From a virus: a stretch of DNA of 64,000 nt. The notes beneath the pieces were generated by a model. It was not told the DNA's origin and did no database searches. It saw only the letters and a program-made list of their open reading frames with translations. A program made the position numbers and the translations under genes. Each line of letters opens with the position of its first letter. Position 1 is the first letter of the stretch. This document shows, piece after piece, positions 5,893 through 22,856 of this stretch. The stretch lies in the IMG/VR virus record IMGVR_UViG_3300017824_001452; one strand, written 5' to 3'.

Positions 5893-6363
5893 ATGAAAAT
5901 AAAAATCGTACCAACTGAACCTCGTTGCGGTGATTGTACAATGTGTTGTCAAACTGTAGGGTTTACAGGAGATTGGAAGATTACTGATCTTTACAACGAA
6001 GCAGAAAAATTTGATATTGATTTCGGACCCTGGGAAACTTGCAATAAACTATGCGACACCGGGTGTTCTATACAAGAAAATAAACCTAGAGTCTGTAAAG
6101 AATTCTTTTGTCAATTTATAGAACGCAACCTTTCAGAAAAACACCATCCTAAAAATACAGGGTTTGTAACGTTTAGAGACGGTTTACCCTTAAACAGTCG
6201 AATTGTCATACACTCTAATGATAAAGAATTACCGCCCGATATTCAATACAAAAACAATAAAGAATTACTCAACGACATGTTAGATGAAATGCAAGATAAA
6301 TTAGGACAAGATTGGCTGTTTGCTCAATTAAGTACTAAAAAAGGTAAGATAAGAATACGATGA
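5893..6363 (+). CDS. YkgJ-like CxxCxxCC zinc/Fe-S cluster protein
   Basis: CGDCTMCC...CNKLCDTGCSIQENKPRVCKEFFC pattern. Confidence 0.7.
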   Translation: MKIKIVPTEPRCGDCTMCCQTVGFTGDWKITDLYNEAEKFDIDFGPWETCNKLCDTGCSIQENKPRVCKEFFCQFIERNLSEKHHPKNTGFVTFRDGLPLNSRIVIHSNDKELPPDIQYKNNKELLNDMLDEMQDKLGQDWLFAQLSTKKGKIRIR

Positions 6364-7802
6364 GATTTTTTATCTGCAAGGAAAAATCTAAATTTACAAA
6401 AGACTGGAACATAGAAAATTTTGGTGATTGGTATTTTATACGTGAAAATGATGTTGAATTATTTGAAGGAGAAAATTTTATTGTATTACATTCCGGTTAT
6501 TTAATTGACGATGACATAGATGAAGTTTGTAAAAACTTTAGTTTTAAAAAAACCAATGGAAATTTCTTTGCAATAAAACTCACCAAAGACAATTATGAAT
6601 TAGCATTAGATTATTTTCAAAACCATAAATTGTTTATCGGTAACAAACACGGTATAGAAATTACTAACTATTTGCCCTACATGACAATTAAGCAAGAAGA
6701 CATTGTTAGAACAAGTGTTAAACCAGATCAATATGAACGTGAACTATCAGAAACAGAACGCACTACTTATTATGATAAGATATTTATTTTTGATCCAGGC
6801 TATGATTACATACAAGATGCAAAAGATGCATTTGCACAAGAAATTTGGCATGATCAAGCAGAATTAACCGACTATATACATGGGTGTATGCAACAACACG
6901 CAGATATTATTAAAGAAAAATATCCAGTTAGGATGTGTTCTTTGAGTGAAGGATTTGATTCAGCAGTACAAGGTCAATTTTTTAAAGATGACCGACAATT
7001 ATTATATATTGTAGAGCCGTGCATTTCAGCAGAAAACCATAAAAAATTTATAAAATTAGCACAAGAACAGTTTCCTAATACGCATGTTATGGAATATGAA
7101 ACACAATATAACAGACAGCATTGCCTAGATCACTTGACGGATTCTTCATGTCGTTGGCAATCTGTACTGCCAACACTGATGCAAGTAAAAATGCAAGACA
7201 TTAAACCTGATATTATCATGTACGGCAGTAATGGTAACGAGATGTTTTGTAGAGATTTAATACCTCATATGTTATTTTTGTGTTTACAGTATTATAACAC
7301 TGATAAAATTAAAATGAAAGAAGATTTTTTAGCAGATATACGAAACAAAAATAATCTATATGGCTCTACATATTCAATATTAAATTCTGAAGAAGAACAG
7401 AACTCACACCACGGTTTTACTGCTATTGTTAATAAATTTGTTGACAAATGGTTTGACTCACCGAATACACACTATCTATCACATAAAAAATATGAAGAAT
7501 TTGAAAATGAATTAATAAATCTTACAACTCCTAAATTATATACACGTGTAATTACAGGTAATATAAACATTATGGCTTCATCATTATACAGTGATAGAAA
7601 GATATTTTATGAATTTTTAAAATCTGATAACAATGTATTAAGTGGTACTGCAATGAACGCACCAACACAACGAGCATTGCTAGATAAATATAACTATAAG
7701 TTTGTAACACCACGCAATGATGTAGTTTTTGCAGACTACAATGAATTATATACTACATCTTATGAAGCCACTATTGACCACGATTTAGAGCAAAACATAT
7801 GA
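6360..7802 (+). CDS. Divergent asparagine synthetase-like (PP-loop) protein
   Basis: SLSEGFDS resembles the SGGxDS PP-loop; YGSNGNEMF resembles GxGADExF; N-terminal region is GATase-like. Confidence 0.5.
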   Translation: MRFFICKEKSKFTKDWNIENFGDWYFIRENDVELFEGENFIVLHSGYLIDDDIDEVCKNFSFKKTNGNFFAIKLTKDNYELALDYFQNHKLFIGNKHGIEITNYLPYMTIKQEDIVRTSVKPDQYERELSETERTTYYDKIFIFDPGYDYIQDAKDAFAQEIWHDQAELTDYIHGCMQQHADIIKEKYPVRMCSLSEGFDSAVQGQFFKDDRQLLYIVEPCISAENHKKFIKLAQEQFPNTHVMEYETQYNRQHCLDHLTDSSCRWQSVLPTLMQVKMQDIKPDIIMYGSNGNEMFCRDLIPHMLFLCLQYYNTDKIKMKEDFLADIRNKNNLYGSTYSILNSEEEQNSHHGFTAIVNKFVDKWFDSPNTHYLSHKKYEEFENELINLTTPKLYTRVITGNINIMASSLYSDRKIFYEFLKSDNNVLSGTAMNAPTQRALLDKYNYKFVTPRNDVVFADYNELYTTSYEATIDHDLEQNI

Positions 7803-8423: not shown

Positions 8424-10067
8424 ATGTCTAAAGGTCACATGATAATCATGGGTGGGTTTATCGAACTGCATGACAATATGTTTGAACAAGCCGATGATCT
8501 TACAGAATATTGGTGGCCCAGTCTTAAACGAAGTGCAGGTAGTCATCGCATTGCAACTGTACTTAGAGAAGAAGGTTATGATGTAGAAGTACTTGATTTT
8601 TGGCCTGCTTGGTCTCGTTTACAATTAATACAATTTTTTCAAACACATGTAAGAGAAGATACATTGGCAATTGGACTTTCAGTAATGTTTCCGTTCGGAA
8701 ACATAGCCCGCAAGGGTGTCGGCGCTAAAAAGAAAATCCTAGAAATGCTTCAAACGATAAAATTTTTAAAAGAACTATATCCACATGTTAAATTTGTAGG
8801 AGGATCGCAAAATTTAGTATCGTTGACAGATTGGGATTTAGATTATTATGTAACTGGGTATGCAGAACTTGCAATTAGTGAACTGCTTAAATATTTTAAA
8901 CGTGAATTTAATACTTTAAAAATAACAGAACGTAAACTAGATCATAAAAAAATAAATGTTATAGATTCTTTGCATGATTATCCAGCATATCCTATGCCTA
9001 CTGCTCATATAAAGTATGAAGAACGAGATTATATAAAACCCACCGAAGTATTGTCTTTAGAACTTTCTCGAGGTTGTAAATTTGCTTGTAAGTTTTGTGC
9101 GTTTAGTTTATTGGGAGTAAGGGGAGATTATTCTCGGTGTAAGGATAGCCTTAGAGAAGAATTGTTAGATAATTATAACAAATGGGGAGTTACAAATTAT
9201 AATTGCACTGATGAAACAATCAATGATAAACCTGAAAAATTAGCCAAATATGCTGAAGTAATTAGAAGTTTACCGTTCCAACCCCATATGGGAGGATTTA
9301 TGAGAGCGGACTTGTTAGTAGCCAAACCTAGTACATGGCAAGATTTATATGATATGGGTTTACGATCACACTATTATGGTTTAGAATCTTTCAATCATGA
9401 GGCGGCTAAGTATGTAGGTAAAGGCATGAACCCAGATAAACTAAAAAGTGGGTTACTTGAAGTACAAAAATGGTTTAAAGACAAAGAAGCAGGGAGAGGA
9501 GATTATAATGTCCATACATCAATAATTTTAGGATTACCGGGCGAGACAAAAGAGTCATTCCTTGAAGGTGCAGACTGGTTAAAGAATAACTTTGGTGGTC
9601 ATTCATATGGGATATCTGTTTTGTATATGGGAGATTCTACTATGGCTAACTTTCTTTCGCATCCTTCAGAGTTTGAGGTTACATGGAGAGAAGGAGATGT
9701 ATTTAGACAATTATCATTAGAAGACCTAAAAGAATTAGATAAAGCAGATCCGATAAAAGATCCTGAAATTAGAACAGAAATATTTGAAAGAAATCAAGTT
9801 AAGTGGGAACATGATACTATGAACATTTGGGACGCATATAAAACATTTGACGAAATGATGGCTGATCCTAATTCATTAAAAAATCATGTCAGTGGACCCG
9901 GTCCTTTTTCTTATCACAGATTTCTTACAACAGGTAAATATACAATGCAAGATATTTACGATAATACTTACGGAGAAAACGGTTTTGAACAAATAACTGA
10001 TAGTGATATAAATAGTCATAGAGAATTTCTTAATGATTATATTAATAAAAAATTAGGCAAAGAGTGA
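8424..10067 (+). CDS. B12-binding-type radical SAM protein
   Basis: LELSRGCKFACKFC (CxxxCxxC), GLESFN, IILGLPGET; N-terminal Rossmann-like domain. Confidence 0.85.
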   Translation: MSKGHMIIMGGFIELHDNMFEQADDLTEYWWPSLKRSAGSHRIATVLREEGYDVEVLDFWPAWSRLQLIQFFQTHVREDTLAIGLSVMFPFGNIARKGVGAKKKILEMLQTIKFLKELYPHVKFVGGSQNLVSLTDWDLDYYVTGYAELAISELLKYFKREFNTLKITERKLDHKKINVIDSLHDYPAYPMPTAHIKYEERDYIKPTEVLSLELSRGCKFACKFCAFSLLGVRGDYSRCKDSLREELLDNYNKWGVTNYNCTDETINDKPEKLAKYAEVIRSLPFQPHMGGFMRADLLVAKPSTWQDLYDMGLRSHYYGLESFNHEAAKYVGKGMNPDKLKSGLLEVQKWFKDKEAGRGDYNVHTSIILGLPGETKESFLEGADWLKNNFGGHSYGISVLYMGDSTMANFLSHPSEFEVTWREGDVFRQLSLEDLKELDKADPIKDPEIRTEIFERNQVKWEHDTMNIWDAYKTFDEMMADPNSLKNHVSGPGPFSYHRFLTTGKYTMQDIYDNTYGENGFEQITDSDINSHREFLNDYINKKLGKE

Positions 10068-11653: not shown

Positions 11654-11848
11654 ATGAGAGCATCTGAAGTTGTCAAGCCATATCATCTTTATGCCGCAAC
11701 TGTGTTTGTACAGCAACCGGGATACACAGGCAACATGGACTTCACTGTCTCTGCTCAAACACATTTTGAAGCAAGACAATTAATGAAAAAGATGTATAAT
11801 ATTCCTGACTATAGAATAGGAAGTTTACGTTTAGTTAAACGAGGTTAA
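11654..11848 (+). CDS. Small hypothetical protein (MRASEV N-terminus)
   Basis: Packed ORF directly after the previous gene. Confidence 0.65.
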   Translation: MRASEVVKPYHLYAATVFVQQPGYTGNMDFTVSAQTHFEARQLMKKMYNIPDYRIGSLRLVKRG

Positions 11849-12588
11849 GCAGGTTTACTGTAAACAAAATACTTTCTGTCATTAGCATCTTGTTTGAACG
11901 TCTCTAGTTCTAATCCAAACTCTTTAGCAAAGTTGTGAGCAACTTCAAAACTCCACTCAAATACTTCTACCCAAGGCCCGTTCTTATGTTGAATACCTGG
12001 ATTGACTCTAAAGAACATCTTACCACCTTTAGCAAGTAACTTATTACAGTTTGCTAATCTCACTCTAATATCTTCAATACTATTAAAGTTAATAGATCCT
12101 AATGCTATAATTGCATCAAAGTGTTCATCAACATTTGCATATTCTAAAACATCAACTTGATAGTCTGACATATTGTTATAAGGATCAATGCCGATCAAGT
12201 TTGGTATACGTTCTTTAAATTGATTGTATCCGCAACCTACATCTAATACTGCTTTAGGATTAAGTTTTTTAACTTCATCAACTAACTGCCAGCCTGTATA
12301 ACTATATATTTCTGTCTGTGGCTTCCAAATTTCACCGAAAAACATACTAGAGTATTTGATGTCTAGTTGATCAACAACAGATTCGATAGTGCCTTCCCAT
12401 CTAATTTTTGCATCTAAGTCCATTGTTGCTAAAATATCTTCTTTGAACTTATCAAACTTGACTGGAGTAATAGCCATTTCTTCAAACGTAGTTTTCTCAT
12501 TGAGATTAGTTCTGATGTGATCGTATTTAGGTAAGTTCAGTGCCTCATCTAAATTTTCCATAACCAAGTTAAAAATTTTGCTATTCAT
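11845..12588 (-). CDS. Class I SAM-dependent methyltransferase with N-terminal ACP-like domain
   Basis: VLDVGCG motif I, GIDPY, FDAIIALGS; AAGGA SD upstream. Confidence 0.8.
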   Translation of the reverse strand: MNSKIFNLVMENLDEALNLPKYDHIRTNLNEKTTFEEMAITPVKFDKFKEDILATMDLDAKIRWEGTIESVVDQLDIKYSSMFFGEIWKPQTEIYSYTGWQLVDEVKKLNPKAVLDVGCGYNQFKERIPNLIGIDPYNNMSDYQVDVLEYANVDEHFDAIIALGSINFNSIEDIRVRLANCNKLLAKGGKMFFRVNPGIQHKNGPWVEVFEWSFEVAHNFAKEFGLELETFKQDANDRKYFVYSKPA

Positions 12589-12616
12589 CGAATTTTTTTG
12601 TCCTTACTGTAAATTG

Positions 12617-12632
12617 TATAAATATATTTATA
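12617..12632. promoter_or_regulatory. Perfect palindrome TATAAATATATTTATA = two opposed T4-type late promoters
   Basis: TATAAATA on both strands between divergent genes. Confidence 0.65.
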
Positions 12633-12722
12633 ATTTTTATGAAGTGCGTATATTTTTCTCAATCCCAGAGATAAATACTAGTAGTGATTATTTTAATTAC
12701 TACAACCCTTAAGGAGAATAAT

Positions 12723-13421
12723 ATGAAATCAAACAAAGAATTTGTTGCTAGTATTGTCGAAGGCAATCAAGCATTATTCAAAGCAAGTCAACTTAACGTT
12801 GCAGAGTATTTCGACAACATGCCTGACGAGGATGCGTTGGTAGAACACTTTGTTGGACGTATGGTTAACGAAAGAATGAACATGGTAGAGATTAGTAATA
12901 ATATTGCATCTATGCCTGCTGATGCAGATCCTGTTGAACTTCAAAACTTAACTAAACAAGCAAACGATGAAGCAATTCATTTTCGTTTAGTAAAAGAAGT
13001 TATTGAACATATCAAAGGTGAAGAGATTGATGTTGCAGAAGCAATCGCCGCTGAAGAAGCAAAGCCTACTGCTAAAGGTGCAAGCCTTTTAGAAAAGTAT
13101 GGTGCTGATTCTGATCCAGCCGCTCTTGCCGCATATCAATTAGTTGCAGAAGGTCGTGCAGAAGCCGTTTGGAACACAATGGCAGAAGTAATCGATGATG
13201 AGTTTATCTCAACTCGTTATGCTAAAATTGCTAAAGACGAAGGTTTCCACAGCACAATCGGCGCAATGAAGTTAGAAACTTTAGTCGGTGATGCTGAAAC
13301 TCAAGCACGTATCGAAGAACTTGTTTCAAACATGCGTAAAGACTTGTATGAAATTTCATGCAAAAACACTAGCCATAATGCAGAAGGACAAAAATTAGTA
13401 TCAGAAGCATACGGTTGGTAA
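12723..13421 (+). CDS. Ferritin-like diiron-carboxylate protein
   Basis: E...DEAIH and E...DEGFH ligand pairs; start set by AGGAG SD; late box GATAAATA at 12670. Confidence 0.8.
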   Translation: MKSNKEFVASIVEGNQALFKASQLNVAEYFDNMPDEDALVEHFVGRMVNERMNMVEISNNIASMPADADPVELQNLTKQANDEAIHFRLVKEVIEHIKGEEIDVAEAIAAEEAKPTAKGASLLEKYGADSDPAALAAYQLVAEGRAEAVWNTMAEVIDDEFISTRYAKIAKDEGFHSTIGAMKLETLVGDAETQARIEELVSNMRKDLYEISCKNTSHNAEGQKLVSEAYGW

Positions 13422-13434
13422 GCAGAAGTATGTA

Positions 13435-13986
13435 GTGAATATCGGTCTATCACAGAGGATATTACATTATAACAACGTGGCGTATGATTGCTTAGAACAC
13501 GGTTGGTACAGCCTGTTAAGTGATCATACGTTTTTTTATATCCCTAACATAATAGAACAAGACTATAAAAAATTAGTTAGAGATTTAGACTTAGTAATCT
13601 TAACAGGTGGAGACGCAAGTCCTCAAAGAATACTAGTCGAAACAAAAGTATTAACGCAATGTTATATACAAGACAAACCTGTATTAGGAGTTTGTCACGG
13701 TGCATTTCTTATTAACGAATTAGAGCAAGGAGTTAATAGCACAATAGAAAATCATTACGATACTACTCACGGGATTATTTTAGAAGGTGAGAAGTACGAA
13801 GTAAATAGTTTTCACATGAATCAGTTAAAGGAAGTTGGCGCAGATTTAAATGCTATTGCACACGCCGATGATGGAAGTATTGAAGCATTTAGACACAAAA
13901 ACAGAAAACTTTGGGGACTAGTTTGGCATCCTGAAAGAATGCAAGATCCTGTTTTACCTGACGACCTTAGGAGTTTTATACTATGA
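13435..13986 (+). CDS. Class I glutamine amidotransferase/peptidase C26 (gamma-glutamyl hydrolase, Cj1417-like)
   Basis: ILTGG, LGVCHG nucleophile elbow, VNSFH, WHPE; N-terminal IGLSQR. Confidence 0.85.
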   Translation: MNIGLSQRILHYNNVAYDCLEHGWYSLLSDHTFFYIPNIIEQDYKKLVRDLDLVILTGGDASPQRILVETKVLTQCYIQDKPVLGVCHGAFLINELEQGVNSTIENHYDTTHGIILEGEKYEVNSFHMNQLKEVGADLNAIAHADDGSIEAFRHKNRKLWGLVWHPERMQDPVLPDDLRSFIL

Positions 13987-14759
13987 GAGTATTAATATTT
14001 GGTCTACCCGGAAGTGGTAAGACATATCTAGCAAAACGACTAGTTGAATACTTAGGTGACAATGTTGCCTGGTTTAATGCTGATCAGGTTCGCAGTGATG
14101 TAAATGACTGGGACTTTTCAGAAGAAGGTAGATTAAGACAAAAACAAAGAATAGATAATCTTTGTAAAGAAGCCGAAGACAATGGTAAAATTGCAATCGC
14201 AGATTTTATTTGTCCTTTTAAAAAAGCAAGAAAAGAATTTAGTGCTGATTATGAAATCTTTGTCGATACAATTGAAGAAGGTATATTTGAAGACACAAAT
14301 CAAATATTTGAAAGACCAATTGCTACAGACTATAATATACATGAAAAACGAGGTGATATAGATGCAAAAATTATTGCATATGAAATAGGACAAAGATTTA
14401 TATGGGATAATACAGCACCTACAACTCAAATGTTAGGTAGATGGCAACCATGGCATGGAGGACATCAAGCATTATTTGATAGAGCAATAGCAAAACACGG
14501 ACAAGTTTTTTTAATGGTCAGAGATATGCCCATAGATATTAATAATCCTTTTCCGGCGTATGAAGTAGTAGAAAATTTACAACAAGTTTTATACAAACAT
14601 GCAGGAAAAGTAAAAATACAAGTTGTGCCTAACTTATTAAACATCACATATGGTAGAGATGTAGGATACAAAATCGAACAAGAAACGTTTGAACGTGAAG
14701 TACATGATATAAGTGCAACTAGAATACGTGAACAAATGAGACAAGACGGAGTATTATAA
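13983..14759 (+). CDS. CysC/adenylylsulfate kinase-like domain fused to HxGH cytidylyltransferase
   Basis: GLPGSGKT P-loop, NADQVR, ADFICP; GRWQPWHGGH and ISATRIR. Confidence 0.85.
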   Translation: MRVLIFGLPGSGKTYLAKRLVEYLGDNVAWFNADQVRSDVNDWDFSEEGRLRQKQRIDNLCKEAEDNGKIAIADFICPFKKARKEFSADYEIFVDTIEEGIFEDTNQIFERPIATDYNIHEKRGDIDAKIIAYEIGQRFIWDNTAPTTQMLGRWQPWHGGHQALFDRAIAKHGQVFLMVRDMPIDINNPFPAYEVVENLQQVLYKHAGKVKIQVVPNLLNITYGRDVGYKIEQETFEREVHDISATRIREQMRQDGVL

Positions 14760-15430
14760 TGAAAGGAATGGTAAACGTTTTTGGAACGTTAGACATAAAA
14801 GATCGTTACAACATGACGATTATCAAATTAGAAGCCAATGAACTTAAGACTTATAAACCAATTGGTATGGCGTATGTTATGTTAAGAAATGCTAGTTTTG
14901 AAAGCAATAACATTACATTAACAAATAAAAATGCATGTGTCAATACAGGAGATAATTTTACAATATCTTGCGGAGAACAAGGCTCTGCATGTATCGTTGA
15001 GTTTCCAGGACTTAGTTTATTAGAAAGTCGCATTTTTATACAAGAATGTTTAGACATAGGTAACTTAAGTTATATGGACGGCGGCACAAATACTACAGCA
15101 ATCAATCCAGGTAGATTAGGTGACCCTGTTATTAACTATGTGCATTTTCCTGCAGGTATGTATCAGACATTACACACGCACCCTTCTCACAGAGTTGGAC
15201 TAGTCATCAAAGGCAATGGCAAGATAGAATTAGACAACAAAGAATTTTATGATGTCAACGAAGGCGAAGTATTTTTCATGCGTAGAAATTGTTTACATAA
15301 CTTTATCTGTGACAAAGACGAAGATGTAATCGTGTTTGTATGGGCGCCAGACAGTGGTACAGGCCCTACAGATGAAATTAACCCATTAAAAATTAGAACA
15401 TATGTTGGACAGCAAAGATATCACAAGTAA
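14759..15430 (+). CDS. Cupin-domain protein
   Basis: QTLHTHPSHR...G.G...GEVF...LHNF cupin metal motif. Confidence 0.75.
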   Translation: MKGMVNVFGTLDIKDRYNMTIIKLEANELKTYKPIGMAYVMLRNASFESNNITLTNKNACVNTGDNFTISCGEQGSACIVEFPGLSLLESRIFIQECLDIGNLSYMDGGTNTTAINPGRLGDPVINYVHFPAGMYQTLHTHPSHRVGLVIKGNGKIELDNKEFYDVNEGEVFFMRRNCLHNFICDKDEDVIVFVWAPDSGTGPTDEINPLKIRTYVGQQRYHK

Positions 15431-16067
15431 AAAAATCTTAATCATTACAGGTCCACAAGGGTCTGGTAATCATTTATTCAGTAGACTGTTTAGTTTACAT
15501 GATGACGTAGGCGGCTGGGAAGAATTAAATGAAAAGTATTGGGTACCCAGTGATGAAGAAACATTTGCTGAGTATTGGGTTTATCCTGAACGTCTAAAAG
15601 ATTTTGATTTTAGTAAACATAATTACTGGGTAGCAAACGTCAGTTGTCCATTCATGTACGATGGCACACGTTATACACCTAAAATAAAAGAGTTTGCAGA
15701 CGAATGTATTAAACTAGGCATTGATGTTACAATAGGTATAATCGTAAGAGATAAAAACATAAACGTAGAACAACAGAAAAGAGTTAGAAAAGAAGTAACT
15801 CTGCCGATAGCACTTAACTATTACTATACAAATCTATTAGATTATAATGTGCATTTCTTAGACCATGAAGCATTCTTTTTACATAAGGCTTATTATCTAA
15901 GATATGTAAGTAAAATTTTAGACTTTCCAGTTGCATATGATAATCCAGATATAATGAAATTTATTTGGGAAGATGCAAATCATAAGTATGTCAAATATGT
16001 AGACGAACATTGGCTTGACAAAGAGGTGTGGGACGGTATTAGAACTAAGGAAGAAAGAAACGTATGA
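15402..16067 (+). CDS. P-loop/sulfotransferase-like protein
   Basis: IITGPQGSGNHL N-terminal motif; IIVRD. Confidence 0.55.
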   Translation: MLDSKDITSKKILIITGPQGSGNHLFSRLFSLHDDVGGWEELNEKYWVPSDEETFAEYWVYPERLKDFDFSKHNYWVANVSCPFMYDGTRYTPKIKEFADECIKLGIDVTIGIIVRDKNINVEQQKRVRKEVTLPIALNYYYTNLLDYNVHFLDHEAFFLHKAYYLRYVSKILDFPVAYDNPDIMKFIWEDANHKYVKYVDEHWLDKEVWDGIRTKEERNV

Positions 16068-16684
16068 AATATATTTTTGTAGCAGGGGCACCCGGATCTA
16101 AATGGAGTAGTGTATGTAAAAACATCTACTACAGTGATTCTATAGATCAAAGTGATGCTAGTGAAGACAGAGAGTATTGGCATGATGCTAGTGGGCAACT
16201 AGACTTAATGCATATTGGTGCATACTTTGATCCAGGCATGGAGTTCGGAGATTTCTTTTTGTTTCTTAACAAGTATACAAAAGAAGAATGTGAAGCAGAG
16301 TTTGATAGACCTTTTTCAGGCGAAGGTGTGCGTATTATTAAGAGTCATGTGTTCGCACATCACATAGACTTTCTAAAAGATAACTGGCCAGACTGCCCTA
16401 TTGTTTTAGTTCACAGAGATAATGATGCATGTTTGGGTTGGTGGGTAAGATGTGGACACTTTGATATTACATACCCTCTCTATCATAAATATTATGTGAA
16501 TTTAAGAGAAATGAGTAAGATTGTAGACGATCAAAACAGAGATATCGTCAATGCATGGAAAAGATATGGTGGCATTAGCCCGAAAGATAATTTAGATTTA
16601 GCAGATATATTAAAAATCAATAGGCCACCAGAAGAATATCAGCAAGACTACAATCTAAAAGATATTGGAATAAAAGTAATATGA
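16064..16684 (+). CDS. P-loop/sulfotransferase-like protein
   Basis: FVAGAPGSKWS, IIKSH and IVLVHRD pattern typical of the sulfotransferase fold. Confidence 0.55.
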   Translation: MKYIFVAGAPGSKWSSVCKNIYYSDSIDQSDASEDREYWHDASGQLDLMHIGAYFDPGMEFGDFFLFLNKYTKEECEAEFDRPFSGEGVRIIKSHVFAHHIDFLKDNWPDCPIVLVHRDNDACLGWWVRCGHFDITYPLYHKYYVNLREMSKIVDDQNRDIVNAWKRYGGISPKDNLDLADILKINRPPEEYQQDYNLKDIGIKVI

Positions 16685-17352
16685 CACAAAGCAGTTGGGA
16701 ACAATTAAAACAAAGAAGCAATTATCACTTTGACCCTGATTTGATGCATCCTCTCTATGATACAGTCGATAGAGTAGGCGTAATTGATTTGAGTAGCATC
16801 ACACAAGAAGAATTAGACAAAGTTGTAGCAGAGTCTAAAGAAGCAACATGGCGTACGAGAGGCAACCCTAAAAAAGAATCTAAAGTCAGAGGAGAAGATG
16901 AATTTAAGACTGAAGACTATGACTTAGAAAAGACAGGTTATGGTATTGACTATGTTGTCAGTAATCTTAACTGGGAAGTGCCACCAAACATACAAGCAAT
17001 TGCAGATCAGTTTGGTTTAGATGATATGATGACTAGAATTCATGTACAGAATCCAGGTCAAGTATGGAACTTGCACATGGACAAATTAGAAAAATGGAAC
17101 TTTGAAGACCCAAGTACTGTAGAAAGATACATGATTCAATTATCTGATTGGAGACCCGGTCAATGGTTTAGTTATGGTAACTATACTTTTGAGCATTGGA
17201 AAGCAGGAGATGTGACTACATTTAGATGGCAAGATGTTCCTCACTCAACTGCAAACGCAGGTCATCACCCTCGTATTACTTTACAAGTTACTGGAGTTCG
17301 TACTGATAAATCTAAAGAGTTTATACGATTGTTACGAAAAGGAGAGTTATAA
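16681..17352 (+). CDS. 2OG-Fe(II) oxygenase (AspH-like)
   Basis: PGQVWNLHMD (HxD), HSTANAG (distal H), RITLQVTG. Confidence 0.75.
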   Translation: MTQSSWEQLKQRSNYHFDPDLMHPLYDTVDRVGVIDLSSITQEELDKVVAESKEATWRTRGNPKKESKVRGEDEFKTEDYDLEKTGYGIDYVVSNLNWEVPPNIQAIADQFGLDDMMTRIHVQNPGQVWNLHMDKLEKWNFEDPSTVERYMIQLSDWRPGQWFSYGNYTFEHWKAGDVTTFRWQDVPHSTANAGHHPRITLQVTGVRTDKSKEFIRLLRKGEL

Positions 17353-17613
17353 CTCTCTTTTGTTGACATCCTTGCAGATTTCTTTTGCAAGATCACTACC
17401 AGTTGTCACAAACAAAAACGGAAAGAACGCATGTATGATAACAGCAAGGCCTGTTAATAGCATACTTACACCATAGTACAATGCACAACTTAAATGTTCC
17501 GTGTATGTTTCACCCAAAGAGTGTGGATGTTCTGTAAATTTGTTTCGGAGTTTATTGAAAAACGTGATTGTTTTGCTCTCCGTATATTTTAATATACTTG
17601 CCGGCAATTTCAT
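17347..17613 (-). CDS. Small membrane protein, DUF6356-like (start uncertain)
   Basis: FTEHP..GETY.EH...HAFFPFLF..TGS signature. Confidence 0.6.
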   Translation of the reverse strand: MKLPASILKYTESKTITFFNKLRNKFTEHPHSLGETYTEHLSCALYYGVSMLLTGLAVIIHAFFPFLFVTTGSDLAKEICKDVNKREL

Positions 17614-18091
17614 CTGCTTCTGATTCTATAGGAGACCCTGGATAACTTGAATTGGGTGTGATTAAACCTTTTTCTCCTTGTCTGATATGAACAAGTTCAT
17701 GGAATACTGTTCTAAGAATATCAATTAGATTTCTGTTGCCATAGACCCAAATCTCGTCAGAACCAAGTTCGTGTCTACCCGTATGATGACCGTCTTGTGC
17801 CTCTTGTGTATCATAACTTAACTTGACTTTAGGCATATTTTCAATTTTTAAAACATTACCCATCCAATGTGCGGCTTTTGTTACTTCATCCTCAATGTTT
17901 AAACCATCATCAAACATTTGATCAGAAGCAGTTAATTCTTGTCTTGCTTTGTGTGCTTGTTTGGCAGCCTGCTTGGCATTACGATAAATTTTACCTTTTT
18001 CGTCTACGTTATATTGATCACTCTTAATCTTGGGAAGTCTGTTTTCCAAGTCTTTAAGCGGATCTTCATTGATAAATTGATAGGCTCTCAT
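17552..18091 (-). CDS. Zincin-like metallopeptidase with capsid-targeting-like N-terminus MRAYQFINE
   Basis: FHELVH (HExxH) plus downstream E.EA; start reassigned to the ATG 5 nt after GATAAATA. Confidence 0.7.
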   Translation of the reverse strand: MRAYQFINEDPLKDLENRLPKIKSDQYNVDEKGKIYRNAKQAAKQAHKARQELTASDQMFDDGLNIEDEVTKAAHWMGNVLKIENMPKVKLSYDTQEAQDGHHTGRHELGSDEIWVYGNRNLIDILRTVFHELVHIRQGEKGLITPNSSYPGSPIESEADEIAGKYIKIYGEQNNHVFQ

Positions 18092-18096
18092 ACTAT

Positions 18097-18104
18097 TATT
18101 TATC
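18097..18104 (-). promoter_or_regulatory. Late promoter GATAAATA (leaderless geometry)
   Basis: 5 nt upstream of ATG at 18091; no SD. Confidence 0.6.
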
Positions 18105-18131
18105 AATAATTGCTTTTGGGAAATGTTTTGC

Positions 18132-18160
18132 TTGACTCTAACCGTATTAAATATTACAAT
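18132..18160 (+). promoter_or_regulatory. sigma70-type early promoter
   Basis: TTGACT-N17-TACAAT, 7 nt before ATG 18168. Confidence 0.65.
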
Positions 18161-18167
18161 AGAACAC

Positions 18168-18389
18168 ATGATATTACCTGAAGTTGAAAAAGCACTACAT
18201 ATCATTTGGGAACTAGAGTATGAAATGTTGAATGAAAGAAACTGTGGTTACACGGGTTCAGACATGAAAAAGAAACTCTGGCAGATCAAAATGAGAGTAG
18301 ACAAAGCAATTGCAAAGGCCCCGGTCTATCATGGTGACCCAAACTACGAACAAGAATATCTTGTAGCAAAAATTAAAGGCGAAGTATGA
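18168..18389 (+). CDS. Hypothetical protein, paralog of 33089..33325
   Basis: Shared EM...N.GY....K..L...K...DK.IA.AP...G pattern. Confidence 0.7.
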   Translation: MILPEVEKALHIIWELEYEMLNERNCGYTGSDMKKKLWQIKMRVDKAIAKAPVYHGDPNYEQEYLVAKIKGEV

Positions 18390-19186
18390 AGTTAGGTATA
18401 ATCGGTAAAGGGTTTGTTGGCTCCGCAGTCAGCAATGGTTTTACTAATGATACAGAACAATTTATCGTTGACCCAGCAATTAATTCTCACACAATCAAAG
18501 ATTTAGTAGAATGGAATCCAGACATGATATTTGTCTGTGTGCCTACTCCACAACAAGAATCACATTTAGACGTAGATACTCACATAGTACGTGAAGTATT
18601 ACTTAACATTGGACTTACAGACTATGCAAACGTTGTAGTAGTTAAATCTACTATTACTCCTAATCATCTAACGCAGTTTAAGAAACTTTTTAGTGGATTA
18701 CGACTTGTATATAATCCTGAGTTCTTAACTGAAGCAAACAGTTTAGAAGACTTTATCAATCCAAATATGCAAATACTAGGTGGAGAGTTACAAGACTGCA
18801 TCGAAGTAGAACAAGCATACATTCATCATAGTCAAGTCAAAATCGTACCCACATTCAAAACAGACTTCACAACAGCAAGTCTAATCAAATACACAATTAA
18901 CAGTTGGTTAGCAACGAAAGTATCATTCTTTAATGAATTATTTCATTTGCACCAATCAAGCAATGCAGAGACTACATGGGAGCAGTTTACTGACATGGTA
19001 AAACGTGACCCAAGAATAGGAGACAGTCATATGCAAGTCCCTGGACCAGATGGTAAGTTTGGTTTTGGTGGACACTGTTTTCCGAAAGATACAAAAGCAT
19101 TGTTATATTATTCTAAACTAGAGGGGGCGCCGCTCACTCTATTAGAAAATGTCATCCAACAAAACGATGACGACAGAAACGGGTAA
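18386..19186 (+). CDS. ugd: UDP-glucose/GDP-mannose 6-dehydrogenase family (short form lacking C-terminal domain)
   Basis: GKGFVG, CVPTP, VKSTI, YNPEFL, GFGGHCFPKD. Confidence 0.88.
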   Translation: MKLGIIGKGFVGSAVSNGFTNDTEQFIVDPAINSHTIKDLVEWNPDMIFVCVPTPQQESHLDVDTHIVREVLLNIGLTDYANVVVVKSTITPNHLTQFKKLFSGLRLVYNPEFLTEANSLEDFINPNMQILGGELQDCIEVEQAYIHHSQVKIVPTFKTDFTTASLIKYTINSWLATKVSFFNELFHLHQSSNAETTWEQFTDMVKRDPRIGDSHMQVPGPDGKFGFGGHCFPKDTKALLYYSKLEGAPLTLLENVIQQNDDDRNG

Positions 19187-19519: not shown

Positions 19520-20145
19520 TGCCAAGACTTGTCACGTTTGGATGTTCATTTACATACGGCCACAGTTTACCTGACTGTTATATAGGAAATGGACGTCCAG
19601 GTGATTCTCCTAGTAAGTTTGCTTGGCCAAATCTACTAGCAGAAAAGTTAGATTACGAGTGTTTAAATTTATCTGCTTGTGGTTCGGGTAATTATCAAAT
19701 TTTACTAGATATTTTACGGACAGATTTTAAACAGGATGATTTAGTTGTAATAGGATATTCGTATTTTGATAGATATGAAAATTACCTAATGACTGATAAA
19801 ATTGACGCAGGCTTTCAAATAACTTCAGAGTCTAAAGAACTTCAACATAGAATAGAAATCAATAAAGTTATGTTAGGTGAGACAAGTGAAGAACAAAAGT
19901 TTTGGAATAATTGGTTATCCATACAACATGCAGAAATGATATTAAACTCTAAAAATATAAAAAATTATTCGTTTCTCAATGTGCCAGAAATAGCACAAGA
20001 AACAAAACCTGACTTGATCGAAATGCAAAACTTTATCGATCATATCAAATTAACATTTAAGGATTATGCTTTGGACAAAGAACATCCAGGAATTGAGACT
20101 CATCAGTTGCAATCAGAACAACTTTATAGTACAATAGCACTATGA
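19519..20145 (+). CDS. SGNH/GDSL-like hydrolase
   Basis: FGCSFTYG block I, GSGN, D..HP block V. Confidence 0.65.
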   Translation: MPRLVTFGCSFTYGHSLPDCYIGNGRPGDSPSKFAWPNLLAEKLDYECLNLSACGSGNYQILLDILRTDFKQDDLVVIGYSYFDRYENYLMTDKIDAGFQITSESKELQHRIEINKVMLGETSEEQKFWNNWLSIQHAEMILNSKNIKNYSFLNVPEIAQETKPDLIEMQNFIDHIKLTFKDYALDKEHPGIETHQLQSEQLYSTIAL

Positions 20146-22856
20146 GTTATATCGACGCCATACATGATAAATCTGCGGAACGAATACATGTCGTAGAACG
20201 TACCCCTGAGGGTAACAGAGACTTTAAAGAGTATCCTACGAATTATGTTCTGTATTATGAAGATCCTAAGGGCAAACATCGATCACTTTATGGCACTCCT
20301 GTCAAAAAGTTTTCGTCACGTAAACAAGCAGAGTGGGAGAAAGAGAAACGCATCCACGGTAAGAAACGTCTGTTTGAAGCAGACATTCCGATCGTCTTCA
20401 GATGCCTTAGTGAAAACTATCTGAAGGTTGATGCCCCTAAACTGCATACGTGTTTCTTTGATATCGAGGTAGACTTTGATCCTAGTAGAGGATTCTCTCC
20501 TCCAAGTGATCCATTCAATCCTGTGACTGCTGTTAGTCTATACTTAGACTGGCTTGATCAGTTAGTATGTCTTGCAGTTCCCCCTAAGCATATGACGTAT
20601 GAGACTGCACAAGAAGCAATCGCAGAGTTCCCTGATACTATGTTGTTCAGAACAGAGAAAGAATTGTTTGATGCATTCTTTTCTTTAATCGAAGATGCAG
20701 ATGTGTTGTCAGGTTGGAACTCAGAAGGATATGATATTCCGTATATGGTCAATCGTGTTACACGTGTGATGTCTAAAGATGATACACGTAGATTTTGTCT
20801 GTTAGGGCAGTATCCTAAGAAACGTAAATATGAACGATTTGGTAAAGAAGAAGAAACGTTTGACTTAGTTGGTCGTATTCACTTAGACTATCTACAACTC
20901 TATAAAAAGTACAACTATGAATCTCGCCATAGTTATAAACTAGATGCGATTGGTGAAATGGAAGTTGGTGAAAAGAAGACTGAGTATGAAGGGTCACTAG
21001 ATCAACTGTACAACAAAGACTTTAAAAAGTTCATCGAATATAACAGACAGGATACATTACTGCTTAAGAAACTAGATGATAAGTTGCAGTTCTTAGAACT
21101 TGCTAATCAACTGGCGCATGAAAATACTGTGTTGCTTCCAACTGTTATGGGCTCAGTTGCTATGATTGAAATGGCAGTGATGAATGAAGCACATGAACGT
21201 GGCATGGTTGTACCCAATAAGATAAGACAGAATATCAATACAATCAGTGAAGGACAAGCGGCAGGTGCTTATGTGATGAATCCTAAGAAAGGACTACATG
21301 AGTGGATAGGCTCTATTGATATTAACTCACTTTATCCTTCAACTATTCGTGCATTGAACATGGCTCCAGAGACAATCGTCGGGCAAGTCAGACAGACTCT
21401 TACTGAACAATATATGCAAGAGAAAGGACTGGAACTGGCTAAGAAGAAACCTAGATACAAAGAAGGTGATGCTCCAGTAGAAGGACCCGTACTATGGGAA
21501 GGTCTTTTCGGCTCACTAGAGTACACTGCCATTCAAAATCAGGAACGTGGCACTATGCTGACGATTGATTATGAAGATGGCAGAGAAGAACAGATGAGTG
21601 CCGCAGAAGCATGGAAGATGATTTACGATTCTAATAATCCTTATATCCTTAGTGCAAATGGTACAATCTTTAGATCAGATACTGAAGGTGTGATTCCTGG
21701 ACTGTTATCTAAATGGTATTCTGATCGTAAGATTATGCAAGGTAAACTCAGAGAAGCAACTACAAAAGAAGACATTGAGTATTGGGACAAACGTCAGTTA
21801 GTTCGTAAAATTTTGCTTAACTCTGCATATGGTGCACTTTTGAATGAGCATTGTCGATTCTATGATAAACGCATAGGACAAAGTACAACACTCACAGGTC
21901 GTTCTATCACTAAGCATATGTCAGCATTTGTTAATGAAATAATGACTGGTAAATATGATCACACAGGTGACTCAATGATTTATGGTGATACTGACTCATG
22001 TTACTTTAGTGCATGGCCCATGCTTAAAGATGATCTTCCAGCAGATATGTCATTAGAAGACAAAAAGCAGACATTTATTGACTTGTATGAAAGTATGTCT
22101 GACCAATGTAATGTATCGTTTCCTGGCTTTATGGAAAAAGCATTTCATTGTCCACGTGACAAAGGTATGATTATCAAAGGTGGCAGAGAAGTCTGTGGTG
22201 ACAGAGGATTGTTTATTACTAAGAAAAGATATGCAATCAATATCTATGATGCAGAAAATAAACGTACTGACAAAGATGGTGCGATGAAAGTTAAGGCAAT
22301 GGGCTTAGACTTAAAGAGAGCAGATACTCCTGCATATGTACAAGACTTCTTAATGGAAGTTTTAGAAATGACACTATCAGGTAAACAACGTGATGATATT
22401 ATCGAAAAGATTAAAGAGTTTAAAATATCATTAGGTCAACAGGATTCTTGGACAAAAGGTTCTCCTAAGTCTGTTAACAAATTGACATATTATACTGAAC
22501 TAGAAAAGAAATCTAAGACTGGTCGAGCAAACATGCCGGGTCACGTAAGAGCGGCAATGAATTGGAACACACTTAAAAGAATACATGATGACAATTATTC
22601 AATGGAGATCATGGATGGATTCAAAGTAGTAGTATGTAAACTCAAAACTAATGCGTTAGGTTATACGAGTATTGCATACCCTACAGATCAACTTAGACTT
22701 CCTGAATGGTTCAAAGACATGCCATTTGATGACAACTTAATGGAGTCTACTTTAGTAGATGAAAAAATCAGCAACTTGCTAGGAGTTCTTAAATGGGACT
22801 TACGAGCAAACACAGACACTAATTCAACGTTTGATGAGTTGTTTAGTTTCGGGTAA
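20142..22856 (+). CDS. polB: Family B DNA polymerase (T4 gp43-like)
   Basis: ExoI FFDIEV, ExoII GWNSEGYD, ExoIII YNRQD, DINSLYPS, KILLNSAYG, YGDTDS, KKRY. Confidence 0.97.
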   Translation: MSYIDAIHDKSAERIHVVERTPEGNRDFKEYPTNYVLYYEDPKGKHRSLYGTPVKKFSSRKQAEWEKEKRIHGKKRLFEADIPIVFRCLSENYLKVDAPKLHTCFFDIEVDFDPSRGFSPPSDPFNPVTAVSLYLDWLDQLVCLAVPPKHMTYETAQEAIAEFPDTMLFRTEKELFDAFFSLIEDADVLSGWNSEGYDIPYMVNRVTRVMSKDDTRRFCLLGQYPKKRKYERFGKEEETFDLVGRIHLDYLQLYKKYNYESRHSYKLDAIGEMEVGEKKTEYEGSLDQLYNKDFKKFIEYNRQDTLLLKKLDDKLQFLELANQLAHENTVLLPTVMGSVAMIEMAVMNEAHERGMVVPNKIRQNINTISEGQAAGAYVMNPKKGLHEWIGSIDINSLYPSTIRALNMAPETIVGQVRQTLTEQYMQEKGLELAKKKPRYKEGDAPVEGPVLWEGLFGSLEYTAIQNQERGTMLTIDYEDGREEQMSAAEAWKMIYDSNNPYILSANGTIFRSDTEGVIPGLLSKWYSDRKIMQGKLREATTKEDIEYWDKRQLVRKILLNSAYGALLNEHCRFYDKRIGQSTTLTGRSITKHMSAFVNEIMTGKYDHTGDSMIYGDTDSCYFSAWPMLKDDLPADMSLEDKKQTFIDLYESMSDQCNVSFPGFMEKAFHCPRDKGMIIKGGREVCGDRGLFITKKRYAINIYDAENKRTDKDGAMKVKAMGLDLKRADTPAYVQDFLMEVLEMTLSGKQRDDIIEKIKEFKISLGQQDSWTKGSPKSVNKLTYYTELEKKSKTGRANMPGHVRAAMNWNTLKRIHDDNYSMEIMDGFKVVVCKLKTNALGYTSIAYPTDQLRLPEWFKDMPFDDNLMESTLVDEKISNLLGVLKWDLRANTDTNSTFDELFSFG

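Follow-up and report, generated by a model that had tools for sequence, protein, structure and literature searches.

Which molecule gets hydroxylated and sulfated by an eight-gene enzyme cassette of a giant phage is the first of three questions raised by positions 11845-17352 of the IMG/VR virus record IMGVR_UViG_3300017824_001452, of which a stretch of 64,000 nucleotides, called the window below, was analysed. The other two are what a hydrolase of the Campylobacter jejuni Cj1417 type cleaves when it is paired with a diiron enzyme and not with a glutamine kinase, and whether a domain of 110 residues resembling nicotinamide mononucleotide adenylyltransferases (NMNATs) can activate sulfate. An earlier note, made from the sequence alone, had read the genes as a late-expressed and rewired form of C. 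jejuni's O-methyl phosphoramidate (MeOPN) pathway. Our analysis points instead, with a probability that we put at about 0.45, to an accessory cassette, modular in its make-up, that belongs to uncultured aquatic jumbo phages having a T4-type core and that would tailor (oxidise, sulfate and methylate) a candidate low-molecular-weight compound. Among the eight enzymes, only the C26 hydrolase appears to be truly related to the Campylobacter phosphoramidate pathway.

Gene content and promoter region

We take the source of the window (31-40% G+C, with nearly every gene on the plus strand) to be an uncultured jumbo phage with a T4-type core because its DNA polymerase (20142-22856) shares 49% identity with that of Sinorhizobium phage Phosso and 46% with that of Agrobacterium phage Atu_ph07. 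Near-identical IMG/VR contigs (L003-L005) carry the neighbouring genes at 94-100% protein identity to the window, and DNA searches of the cluster against cultured phage genomes, both near and distant, gave no match. Eight intact open reading frames (ORFs) were confirmed at 11845-17352, one on the minus and seven on the plus strand:

11845..12588, minus strand: class I S-adenosylmethionine (SAM) methyltransferase, 247 aa, extended at the N-terminus by about 90 aa, divergent from the operon (weak Pfam matches and a VLDVGCGY motif)
12589..12722, no strand: divergent promoter and leader region (T4-late-type boxes and a ribosome-binding site, RBS)
12684..13421, plus strand: diiron carboxylate oxidase/oxygenase of ferritin-like / heme-oxygenase-like fold (ligands and model)
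13435..13986, plus strand: hydrolase of the C26 / class I glutamine-amidotransferase fold (Pfam and NCBIfam)
13983..14759, plus strand: trimmed adenosine 5'-phosphosulfate (APS) kinase domain (residues 1 to about 125) fused to an NMNAT-like HxGH nucleotidyltransferase (about 145-258) (profiles)
14759..15430, plus strand: metal-dependent cupin, 223 aa, a facultative member (Cupin_2)
15402..16067, plus strand: P-loop-like protein, 221 aa, possibly of sulfotransferase fold (weak profile alignment)
16064..16684, plus strand: distant sulfotransferase-family protein, 206 aa (PF13469 in relatives)
16681..17352, plus strand: prolyl-hydroxylase-like 2-oxoglutarate (2OG)/Fe(II) oxygenase, 223 aa, the last gene of the operon (model and residues)

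The plus-strand genes are joined by ATGA overlaps at 13983, 16064 and 16681, by a 1-base overlap at 14759 and by a 29-nt overlap at 15402, and a 13-nt gap precedes 13435. A hairpin at 17342-17357 stands at the end of the 2OG oxygenase gene. The eight genes form a genuine, tightly coupled operon that recurs in about 100 uncultured aquatic giant-phage contigs.

The true start of the diiron gene is probably the ATG at 12723 (giving a protein of 232 aa), which is preceded by the RBS AAGGAG. The 134-nt region between the methyltransferase gene and this ATG holds all three boxes, namely two TATAAATA boxes standing back to back (12617-12624 on the plus and 12625-12632 on the minus strand) and an ATAAATA at 12671-12677 (plus strand). 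Window-wide, TATAAATA is not enriched (7 copies against 8.3 expected), and six of the seven copies are found a short way upstream of genes. Over 69 related loci taken together, the 120 nt upstream of the diiron gene contain TAAATA 75 times, the background being 6.6% per 120 nt. Because TAAATA is kept at this place across the 69 loci, a shared late-type promoter is plausible, and with it late timing. The earlier note had late boxes driving the cluster; the conserved T4-late-type boxes and the excess of TAAATA over background speak for this, with the amendment that one divergent promoter region appears to serve the cassette, rather than one box per gene.

Co-conservation and modularity

In the IMG/VR scans, the kinase fusion had 264 relatives, the C26 protein 31 and the diiron protein 220 (the last at 62-75% identity). 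Co-conservation was counted over 72 dereplicated loci carrying the diiron gene. The C26 gene lies directly downstream of the diiron gene in 69 of these 72 loci, and the methyltransferase gene is divergently adjacent to it in 54. The 16064 sulfotransferase-like gene is also present in 54 loci, and the 2OG oxygenase gene, found in 45, nearly always follows it immediately. The 15402 family occurs in 40 loci, and a TctC-type solute-binding protein is encoded between C26 and 16064 in 26; the cupin (12 loci) and the kinase fusion (at least 10) are less frequent. Gene-neighbourhood conservation, which the earlier note had proposed as a check, is thus borne out in many phage contigs. The 15402 family is sometimes represented by tandem paralogues, two or three of them standing within the cassette in L106, L134, L158, L160, L169 and L174.

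The cassette is modular. The diiron-C26 pair is missing from L026 and L075, which carry the methyltransferase, TctC, 16064, the oxygenase, the kinase fusion and a GDSL-like gene, and it stands alone or together with a weak oxygenase homologue in L088-L101. Such separate occurrence, together with a varying gene order and a mobile fusion gene that is 80-81% identical in contigs without the cassette, would also be expected if there were no single pathway and the genes were independent auxiliary metabolic genes in a hypervariable region, co-occurring through shared phage ancestry. We regard this as doubtful, since the diiron-C26 and sulfotransferase-oxygenase adjacencies, with stop and start codons that overlap, are still seen at identities as low as 34-60%, one conserved promoter is common to the genes, and diiron and C26 parts may even be fused in some proteins. 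Auxiliary genes of phages mostly code for lone enzymes that strengthen host pathways; a cassette of several enzymes for oxidation and sulfation, under a promoter of its own, is a different thing. Its conservation at 35-75% identity over about 100 giant-phage contigs suggests that a specific compound is made or remodelled in late infection.

The C26 hydrolase and its cellular relatives

The C26 protein matches PF07722 at 62 bits, and its Cys-His-Glu triad (C87, H165 and E167, in the GxCxG and HPE motifs) is invariant. Its comparison with Cj1417 was made through NF045546, the NCBIfam model of Cj1417, and through 78 cellular loci. All 41 phage C26 proteins score best against NF045546 (best E value 4.8e-32) and only 5 of them match the PuuD model, so the protein groups with the Cj1417 type and not with PuuD, as the earlier note had supposed. 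The relationship is distant. The window protein scores 100.9 bits against an equivalog cutoff of 250 bits, and all 41 phage members fall below this cutoff. In a quick maximum-likelihood tree, where long-branch effects are possible, the phage proteins form one clade with a Shimodaira-Hasegawa-like approximate likelihood ratio (SH-aLRT) support of 99 and a stem of 1.59 changes per site. A column comparison found 25 family-signature residues common to the phage and bacterial groups (including R8, D18, W24, N38, R65, E69, H107, H112, N124, S125, H127, E150 and WHPER). The phage proteins carry Y17, H88, F91 and D60 where the bacterial enzymes carry R, R, Q and N, respectively. Judged by their sequences, the phage proteins appear to be true, if distant, relatives of the Cj1417-type gamma-glutamyl-CDP-amidate hydrolases, with the glutamyl-side chemistry probably kept and the leaving-group pocket probably changed. 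In Cj1417, this pocket must accommodate the CDP-phosphoryl group.

Scanning one genome per prokaryote species gave 192 C26 relatives at 28-41% identity. We kept 80 loci, among them the phage-like L189 and L190, and 79 of the 80 (both of these included) have a C26 ORF. Directly upstream of C26, 68 of the 79 loci encode a protein that is about 990 aa long and has PPDK_N and PEP-utilizers domains, and directly downstream of it 73 encode a 262-aa PF00483 nucleotidyltransferase. A full-length APS kinase is present in 21 of them and a TagF-like glycerophosphotransferase in 27, with methyltransferases in several. These cellular loci match the pathway described for Campylobacter, where glutamine, ATP and CTP are converted by Cj1415-Cj1418 into CDP-phosphoramidate 3'-phosphate (PMC11800397). 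No homologues of the phage diiron protein, 16064, 15402, oxygenase or methyltransferase were found in the cellular C26 loci, except in the phage-like L190.

Triads of a glutamine kinase (PPDK_N plus PEP-utilizers), a C26 protein and a PF00483 cytidylyltransferase (L191-L268) were found in species from over a dozen phyla of bacteria and archaea, examples being Pelagibacteraceae, Verrucomicrobiota, Planctomycetota, Acidobacteriota, Streptomyces and, among the haloarchaea, Natronomonas. Many of them also have an APS kinase, a TagF-like transferase and methyltransferases. Because the triads span over a dozen phyla, phosphoramidate-type loci seem far wider spread than Campylobacter. The two phage-like loci come from contigs of metagenome-assembled genomes (MAGs). 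L190, from a Nitrosopumilaceae MAG, has cupin, 15402-type, diiron and C26 genes at 41-68% identity, and L189, a 2.7-kb contig from a Chitinophagaceae MAG, has C26 at 40%; both are probably phage contigs mis-binned into MAGs.

The kinase-nucleotidyltransferase fusion

The fusion protein, which matches phrog_10255 at an E value of 3e-55, joins an APS_kinase domain (PF01583, 44 bits, residues 3-88) to a nucleotidyltransferase domain with HxGH and ISxTxxR motifs (residues 150-258). In the kinase domain G7-K13, D34, R37, F45, R50 and P78 are invariant, S46 is present in at least 90% of the sequences, and the I-C/A-P motif is retained. The P-loop, DxxR, FSxxxR and I(S/C)P motifs of APS kinases are thus kept, and the lid region is shortened. 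Membership in PF01583 is common to the CysC and Cj1415 types and hence does not discriminate between them. The second domain, of about 110 residues, is PF01467-like and carries GRWQPWHGGH and ISATRIR. Profile matches of the fusion to PDB sequences are APS kinases (2e-12) and NMNATs (7e-7), and the nearest solved relatives of the second domain are NMN adenylyltransferases, not cytidylyltransferases.

The gene is an optional member of the cassette. L084 and L085, at 83-99% identity to the window, lack precisely its bases 13982-14757 and have C26 directly against the cupin. L086 also lacks the fusion gene, with a junction that aligns less cleanly, and the more distant L087 has it at the same place. 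In a 98%-complete relative (354 kb), the cassette is present and the only kinase-domain homologue lies more than 65 kb away; in two related records, each 66% complete, no kinase homologue was found. Compared with the copies in L003-L005, the window fusion shows 84-86% identity, against 95-100% for the flanking genes; L006-L008, where no other cassette gene lies within 10 kb, carry copies that are 80-81% identical to it. The fusion gene is mosaic, and similar RBS-start sequences (GGAGT..TATA..ATG) on either side of it could allow exchange. An insertion in the window was our first reading of these data, but as L087 carries the gene at the same place, a loss in L084-L086 is equally possible.

When the fusion was used as query, Pfam-grade sulfotransferases were found as its neighbours in 31 of 80 viral loci. 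With 16064- and 15402-type proteins counted, 25 of the 53 distinct fusion sequences have a sulfotransferase-type neighbour. The Pfam-grade sulfotransferases and GT25, GT2 and GT1 glycosyltransferases are its most frequent neighbours in the 80 loci, and an NAD epimerase, a methyltransferase and a SAM synthetase are met repeatedly. Because its neighbours are sulfotransferases and glycosyltransferases, the fusion is likely a supplier of 3'-phosphoadenosine 5'-phosphosulfate (PAPS). Most likely it is an optional accessory gene encoding a candidate miniature PAPS synthase, which would supply a 3'-phospho-nucleotide donor, probably PAPS. The earlier note had named a plain APS kinase supplying PAPS as a finding that would speak against its reading; the company of canonical sulfotransferases and glycosyltransferases points to such a supply. 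Like the bifunctional PAPS synthases (ATP sulfurylase plus APS kinase, for example PDB 1x6v and 2gks), the phage fusion joins an APS kinase to a nucleotidyltransferase of the broad HxGH superfamily, and in many viral contigs it co-occurs with sulfotransferases. It differs from them in its trimmed kinase lid and in a second domain of about 110 residues that is nearest to NMNATs and not a known ATP sulfurylase. A full-text literature search found no paper describing the cassette or a phage mini PAPS synthase.

NAD salvage (kinase plus NMNAT) was considered as the main function of the fusion and rejected in view of the APS-kinase-specific motifs and the sulfotransferase company. In two cultured phages, the gene stands among replication genes: in Stenotrophomonas phage DLP6 (L001) it adjoins an Fe(II) oxygenase and a Ser/Thr phosphatase, and in Xylella phage Sano (L002) it lies near a cupin annotated as cysteine dioxygenase and near MazG.

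Comparison with the phosphoramidate pathway

The C. jejuni MeOPN donor pathway consists of a glutamine kinase (Cj1418), a cytidylyltransferase (Cj1416), a hydrolase (Cj1417) and a kinase (Cj1415) (PMC11800397). In the rewired form proposed by the earlier note, the C26 protein, the nucleotidyltransferase and the 3'-kinase would make a donor resembling a 3'-phospho-NDP-amidate, the sulfotransferase-fold proteins would transfer it to glycans and the methyltransferase would methylate the product. The phage cassette does share with the C. jejuni pathway a Cj1417-related C26 protein, whose cellular relatives stand in MeOPN-type triads, a domain of the APS-kinase family (that of Cj1415) encoded directly after C26 with an ATGA overlap, and a methyltransferase; moreover, 3'-phospho-CDP-amidate resembles PAPS (PMC11800397). 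We nevertheless consider this pathway very unlikely in the phage.

The first difficulty is the glutamine kinase. Its absence from the cluster was correctly noted before (there is no PF01326 or PF00391 match), and nothing replaces it. Five related phage records, among them one of 98% completeness, gave no match to the PPDK_N domain (PF01326) in a search that was positive in 13 of 14 control genomes. Secondly, MeOPN-type cytidylyltransferases belong to PF00483, and the phage domain taken for one is of the NMNAT-like HxGH type. Thirdly, the kinase is dispensable: most cassettes do not have the fusion, and in the closest relatives its gene is exactly deleted. Fourthly, the candidate transferases differ: those of the 78 bacterial loci are TagF-like, a type that the phage cassette lacks, and these loci lack homologues of the phage diiron protein, 16064, 15402, oxygenase and methyltransferase. 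Finally, the near-invariant partner of the phage C26 protein is a diiron enzyme, and the C26 protein itself, at 101 bits against the 250-bit cutoff, has replaced two arginines conserved in the bacterial enzymes. A glycan target finds little support either, since the cassette has no glycosyltransferase and many relatives carry the TctC-type binding protein. The MeOPN analogy therefore fails on the glutamine kinase, the cytidylyltransferase fold, the transferases and the dispensable kinase; the C26 relationship, the co-conservation and the missing glutamine kinase stand from the earlier proposal, and its pathway logic does not.

The diiron protein

A four-helix core with an E/ExxH/E/ExxH ligand set was confirmed for the diiron protein, and the ligands (E63, E96xxH99, E156 and E186xxH189) are invariant in 22 homologues. 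Its model has a predicted local distance difference test (pLDDT) score of 92. The VIA matches of this model (CADD, Z 17.1; HrmI, 16.0; ADO, 15.6; UndA, 15.3) span heme-oxygenase-like and ferritin-like diiron oxidases, Z values for such helical bundles indicating the fold class only. The family is narrow, with 113 matches among 1.84 billion representative proteins, and its distant cellular relatives are unnamed. There was no tblastn match in the cultured phages of the collection and no credible match in profile searches of PDB sequences. To CADD, HrmI, BesC, UndA and ADO the likeness consists in the best PDB fold match (Z 15-17) and a complete diiron ligand set. The phage protein differs from them in sequence (9-16% identity), in its ligands, which are of the ferritin-like E/ExxH/E/ExxH type as opposed to the three-His heme-oxygenase-like type, and in its obligatory C26 partner, for which no precedent was found. 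In the HrmI/HrmJ and Bes pathways the diiron enzyme is accompanied by 2OG oxygenases, as in the cassette.

In two protein clusters, P0247 (21 member sequences, 416 aa) and P0248 (7 member sequences, 419 aa), the diiron and C26 parts are joined by a single Q, the junction reading ...AYGW-Q-M(R/K)IGL.... Either these fusions are real or the gene caller has read a stop codon as glutamine; in both cases the diiron and C26 genes abut. If the Q is a recoded stop, it would hint at stop-codon recoding in those phages.

The cupin, the sulfotransferase-like proteins and the 2OG oxygenase

The cupin matches Cupin_2 at 41 bits, with H139xH141..H144 and H180 invariant. In the 16064 family, 21 of 35 members match PF13469 (Sulfotransfer_3; best E value 1.3e-6), and in one ESM Atlas neighbour cluster PF13469 or PF00685 is found on part of the members. 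The 15402 protein aligns with real sulfotransferases in hhalign at 28.6% probability and an E value of 6e-4, with the loop and the RD motif in register, and its ESM Atlas neighbours include sulfotransferase clusters. Beyond the loop, no relationship between 16064 and 15402 was detectable, and profile searches of PDB sequences with the oxygenase, 16064 and 15402 gave no credible match.

The model of the 16681 protein (pLDDT 94) is the double-stranded beta-helix of 2OG/Fe oxygenases, with a Z of 12.3 to proline 3-hydroxylase, and H132xD134...H188 and R198 are invariant. All Foldseek and VIA matches are 2OG oxygenases, the best of them being free-proline hydroxylases. Among the enzyme calls of the earlier note, the diiron protein, the C26 protein, the APS-kinase::HxGH fusion, the cupin, the 2OG oxygenase and one sulfotransferase-family protein were confirmed; the methyltransferase (weak Pfam matches and a conserved motif) and the "sulfotransferase" 15402 are weaker assignments.

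The enzymes might alternatively modify a protein of the virion or the host late in infection, through prolyl or other hydroxylation, O-sulfation and methylation, and the target of the diiron-C26 pair would be a peptide or else glutamine or glutamyl side chains. The late-type promoter fits such a role, large structural or cargo-type genes lie upstream in the window, and the structural neighbours of the oxygenase include PHD2, the EF-Tu prolyl hydroxylase and a viral collagen prolyl hydroxylase. This is unlikely in our view, however, as no conserved candidate substrate gene accompanies the cassette, 26 of the 72 loci have the TctC-type protein inside it, the oxygenase is best matched by free-proline hydroxylases and the relatives of the C26 protein act on small molecules.

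The methyltransferase

The methyltransferase has several weak class I Pfam matches, of which only Methyltransf_11 exceeds its cutoff (22.0 against 21.2 bits). Its VLDVGCGY motif is conserved, and a profile search of PDB sequences gave no match. It also shows faint CmoB-like matches, which, together with a DNA polymerase gene 3 kb downstream and the position of the fusion among the replication genes of Sano-like phages and DLP6 (adjoining a cupin, MazG or an Fe(II) oxygenase), could be taken to suggest modification of a nucleic acid, either phage DNA or tRNA. We give this little credence: the cassette has no DNA-binding, glycosylase or transglycosylase domain, fold searches revealed no resemblance to known base-modifying enzymes, and a late promoter would be unusual for DNA-modification genes.

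A proposed role for the cassette

In the tailoring scheme that we favour, the cassette is probably transcribed late from its one divergent promoter region, and the substrate is most likely an amino-acid-like or carboxylate compound. A small molecule is favoured because many relatives encode the TctC protein and because the structural neighbours include hydroxylases and oxidases of free amino acids. A first module (module A) would consist of the diiron oxidase/oxygenase and the C26 hydrolase, the latter descended from a family that cleaves N5-substituted glutamine (Cj1417 type). With its catalytic and glutamyl-side residues kept and two conserved arginines lost, the hydrolase probably acts on a gamma-glutamyl amide that is not CDP-glutamine and splits it into glutamate and an amine-type product, in a step that may precede or follow the diiron reaction. 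A second module (module B) would couple, also translationally, the prolyl-hydroxylase-like 2OG oxygenase to the sulfotransferase-family protein, so that hydroxylation is followed by O-sulfation; it further includes the second P-loop paralogue family, the SAM methyltransferase and, in the window, also the cupin. The APS-kinase::NMNAT-like fusion would be an optional add-on, most likely supplying a PAPS-type donor.

Several points weigh against this scheme. Modules A and B are found apart and therefore may not share one substrate. The TctC gene, which suggests a small-molecule substrate, is absent from the window itself, and the structural neighbours of the oxygenase include protein prolyl hydroxylases besides free-proline hydroxylases. 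The sulfotransferase assignment is weak: 16064 itself scores 19.1 bits against a Pfam cutoff of 27 and aligns with real sulfotransferases in hhalign at 3.9% probability, no Pfam match was found in the 41 members of the 15402 family, and the loop of 15402 (GPQGSGNH) lacks the Lys/Arg of the PAPS loop. As for the donor, the nucleotidyltransferase domain gave no sequence match to ATP sulfurylase, and PAPS synthesis rests on gene context because this domain is NMNAT-like and not a known ATP sulfurylase.

Comparable gene sets are found in bacterial natural-product tailoring, where a hydroxylase, a sulfotransferase and an APS kinase occur together, as in cylindrospermopsin (CyrI/CyrJ/CyrN) and saxitoxin (SxtN/SxtO) biosynthesis. 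The phage cassette likewise couples a 2OG hydroxylase to a sulfotransferase, with an APS-kinase-type gene and a methyltransferase. It differs from these sets in lacking the scaffold builders (polyketide synthase, non-ribosomal peptide synthetase and amidinotransferase), in being phage-borne and putatively late, and in having the diiron-C26 pair and, in relatives, the TctC binding protein. A bolder and rather unlikely extension would make the diiron enzyme and its re-partnered Cj1417-family hydrolase a new unit that produces a reactive nitrogen-containing small molecule from N5-modified glutamine, the remaining enzymes hydroxylating, sulfating and methylating this metabolite with PAPS from an unrecognised miniature ATP sulfurylase. 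If true, the diiron/C26 pair and the mini-sulfurylase would constitute a phage-encoded small-molecule pathway without a described counterpart.

Neighbouring genes

Downstream of the cassette, the minus-strand ORF at 17552-18205 codes for a 217-aa protein with a HELVH (HExxH-type) motif and no Pfam match, homologues of which adjoin the cassette in about 15 related loci. The plus-strand gene at 18386-19186, conserved only in the closest relatives, codes for a 266-aa protein resembling UDP-glucose/GDP-mannose dehydrogenases, with the NAD-binding and central domains and without the C-terminal domain. Upstream, the product of 6360-7802 (plus strand) has a weak Glyco_trans_4_3 match (E value 4e-4). 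The plus-strand gene at 8424-10067 codes for a B12-binding radical SAM protein, weak homologues of which are found near the kinase fusion in viral contigs L014-L016, L037-L041 and L047.

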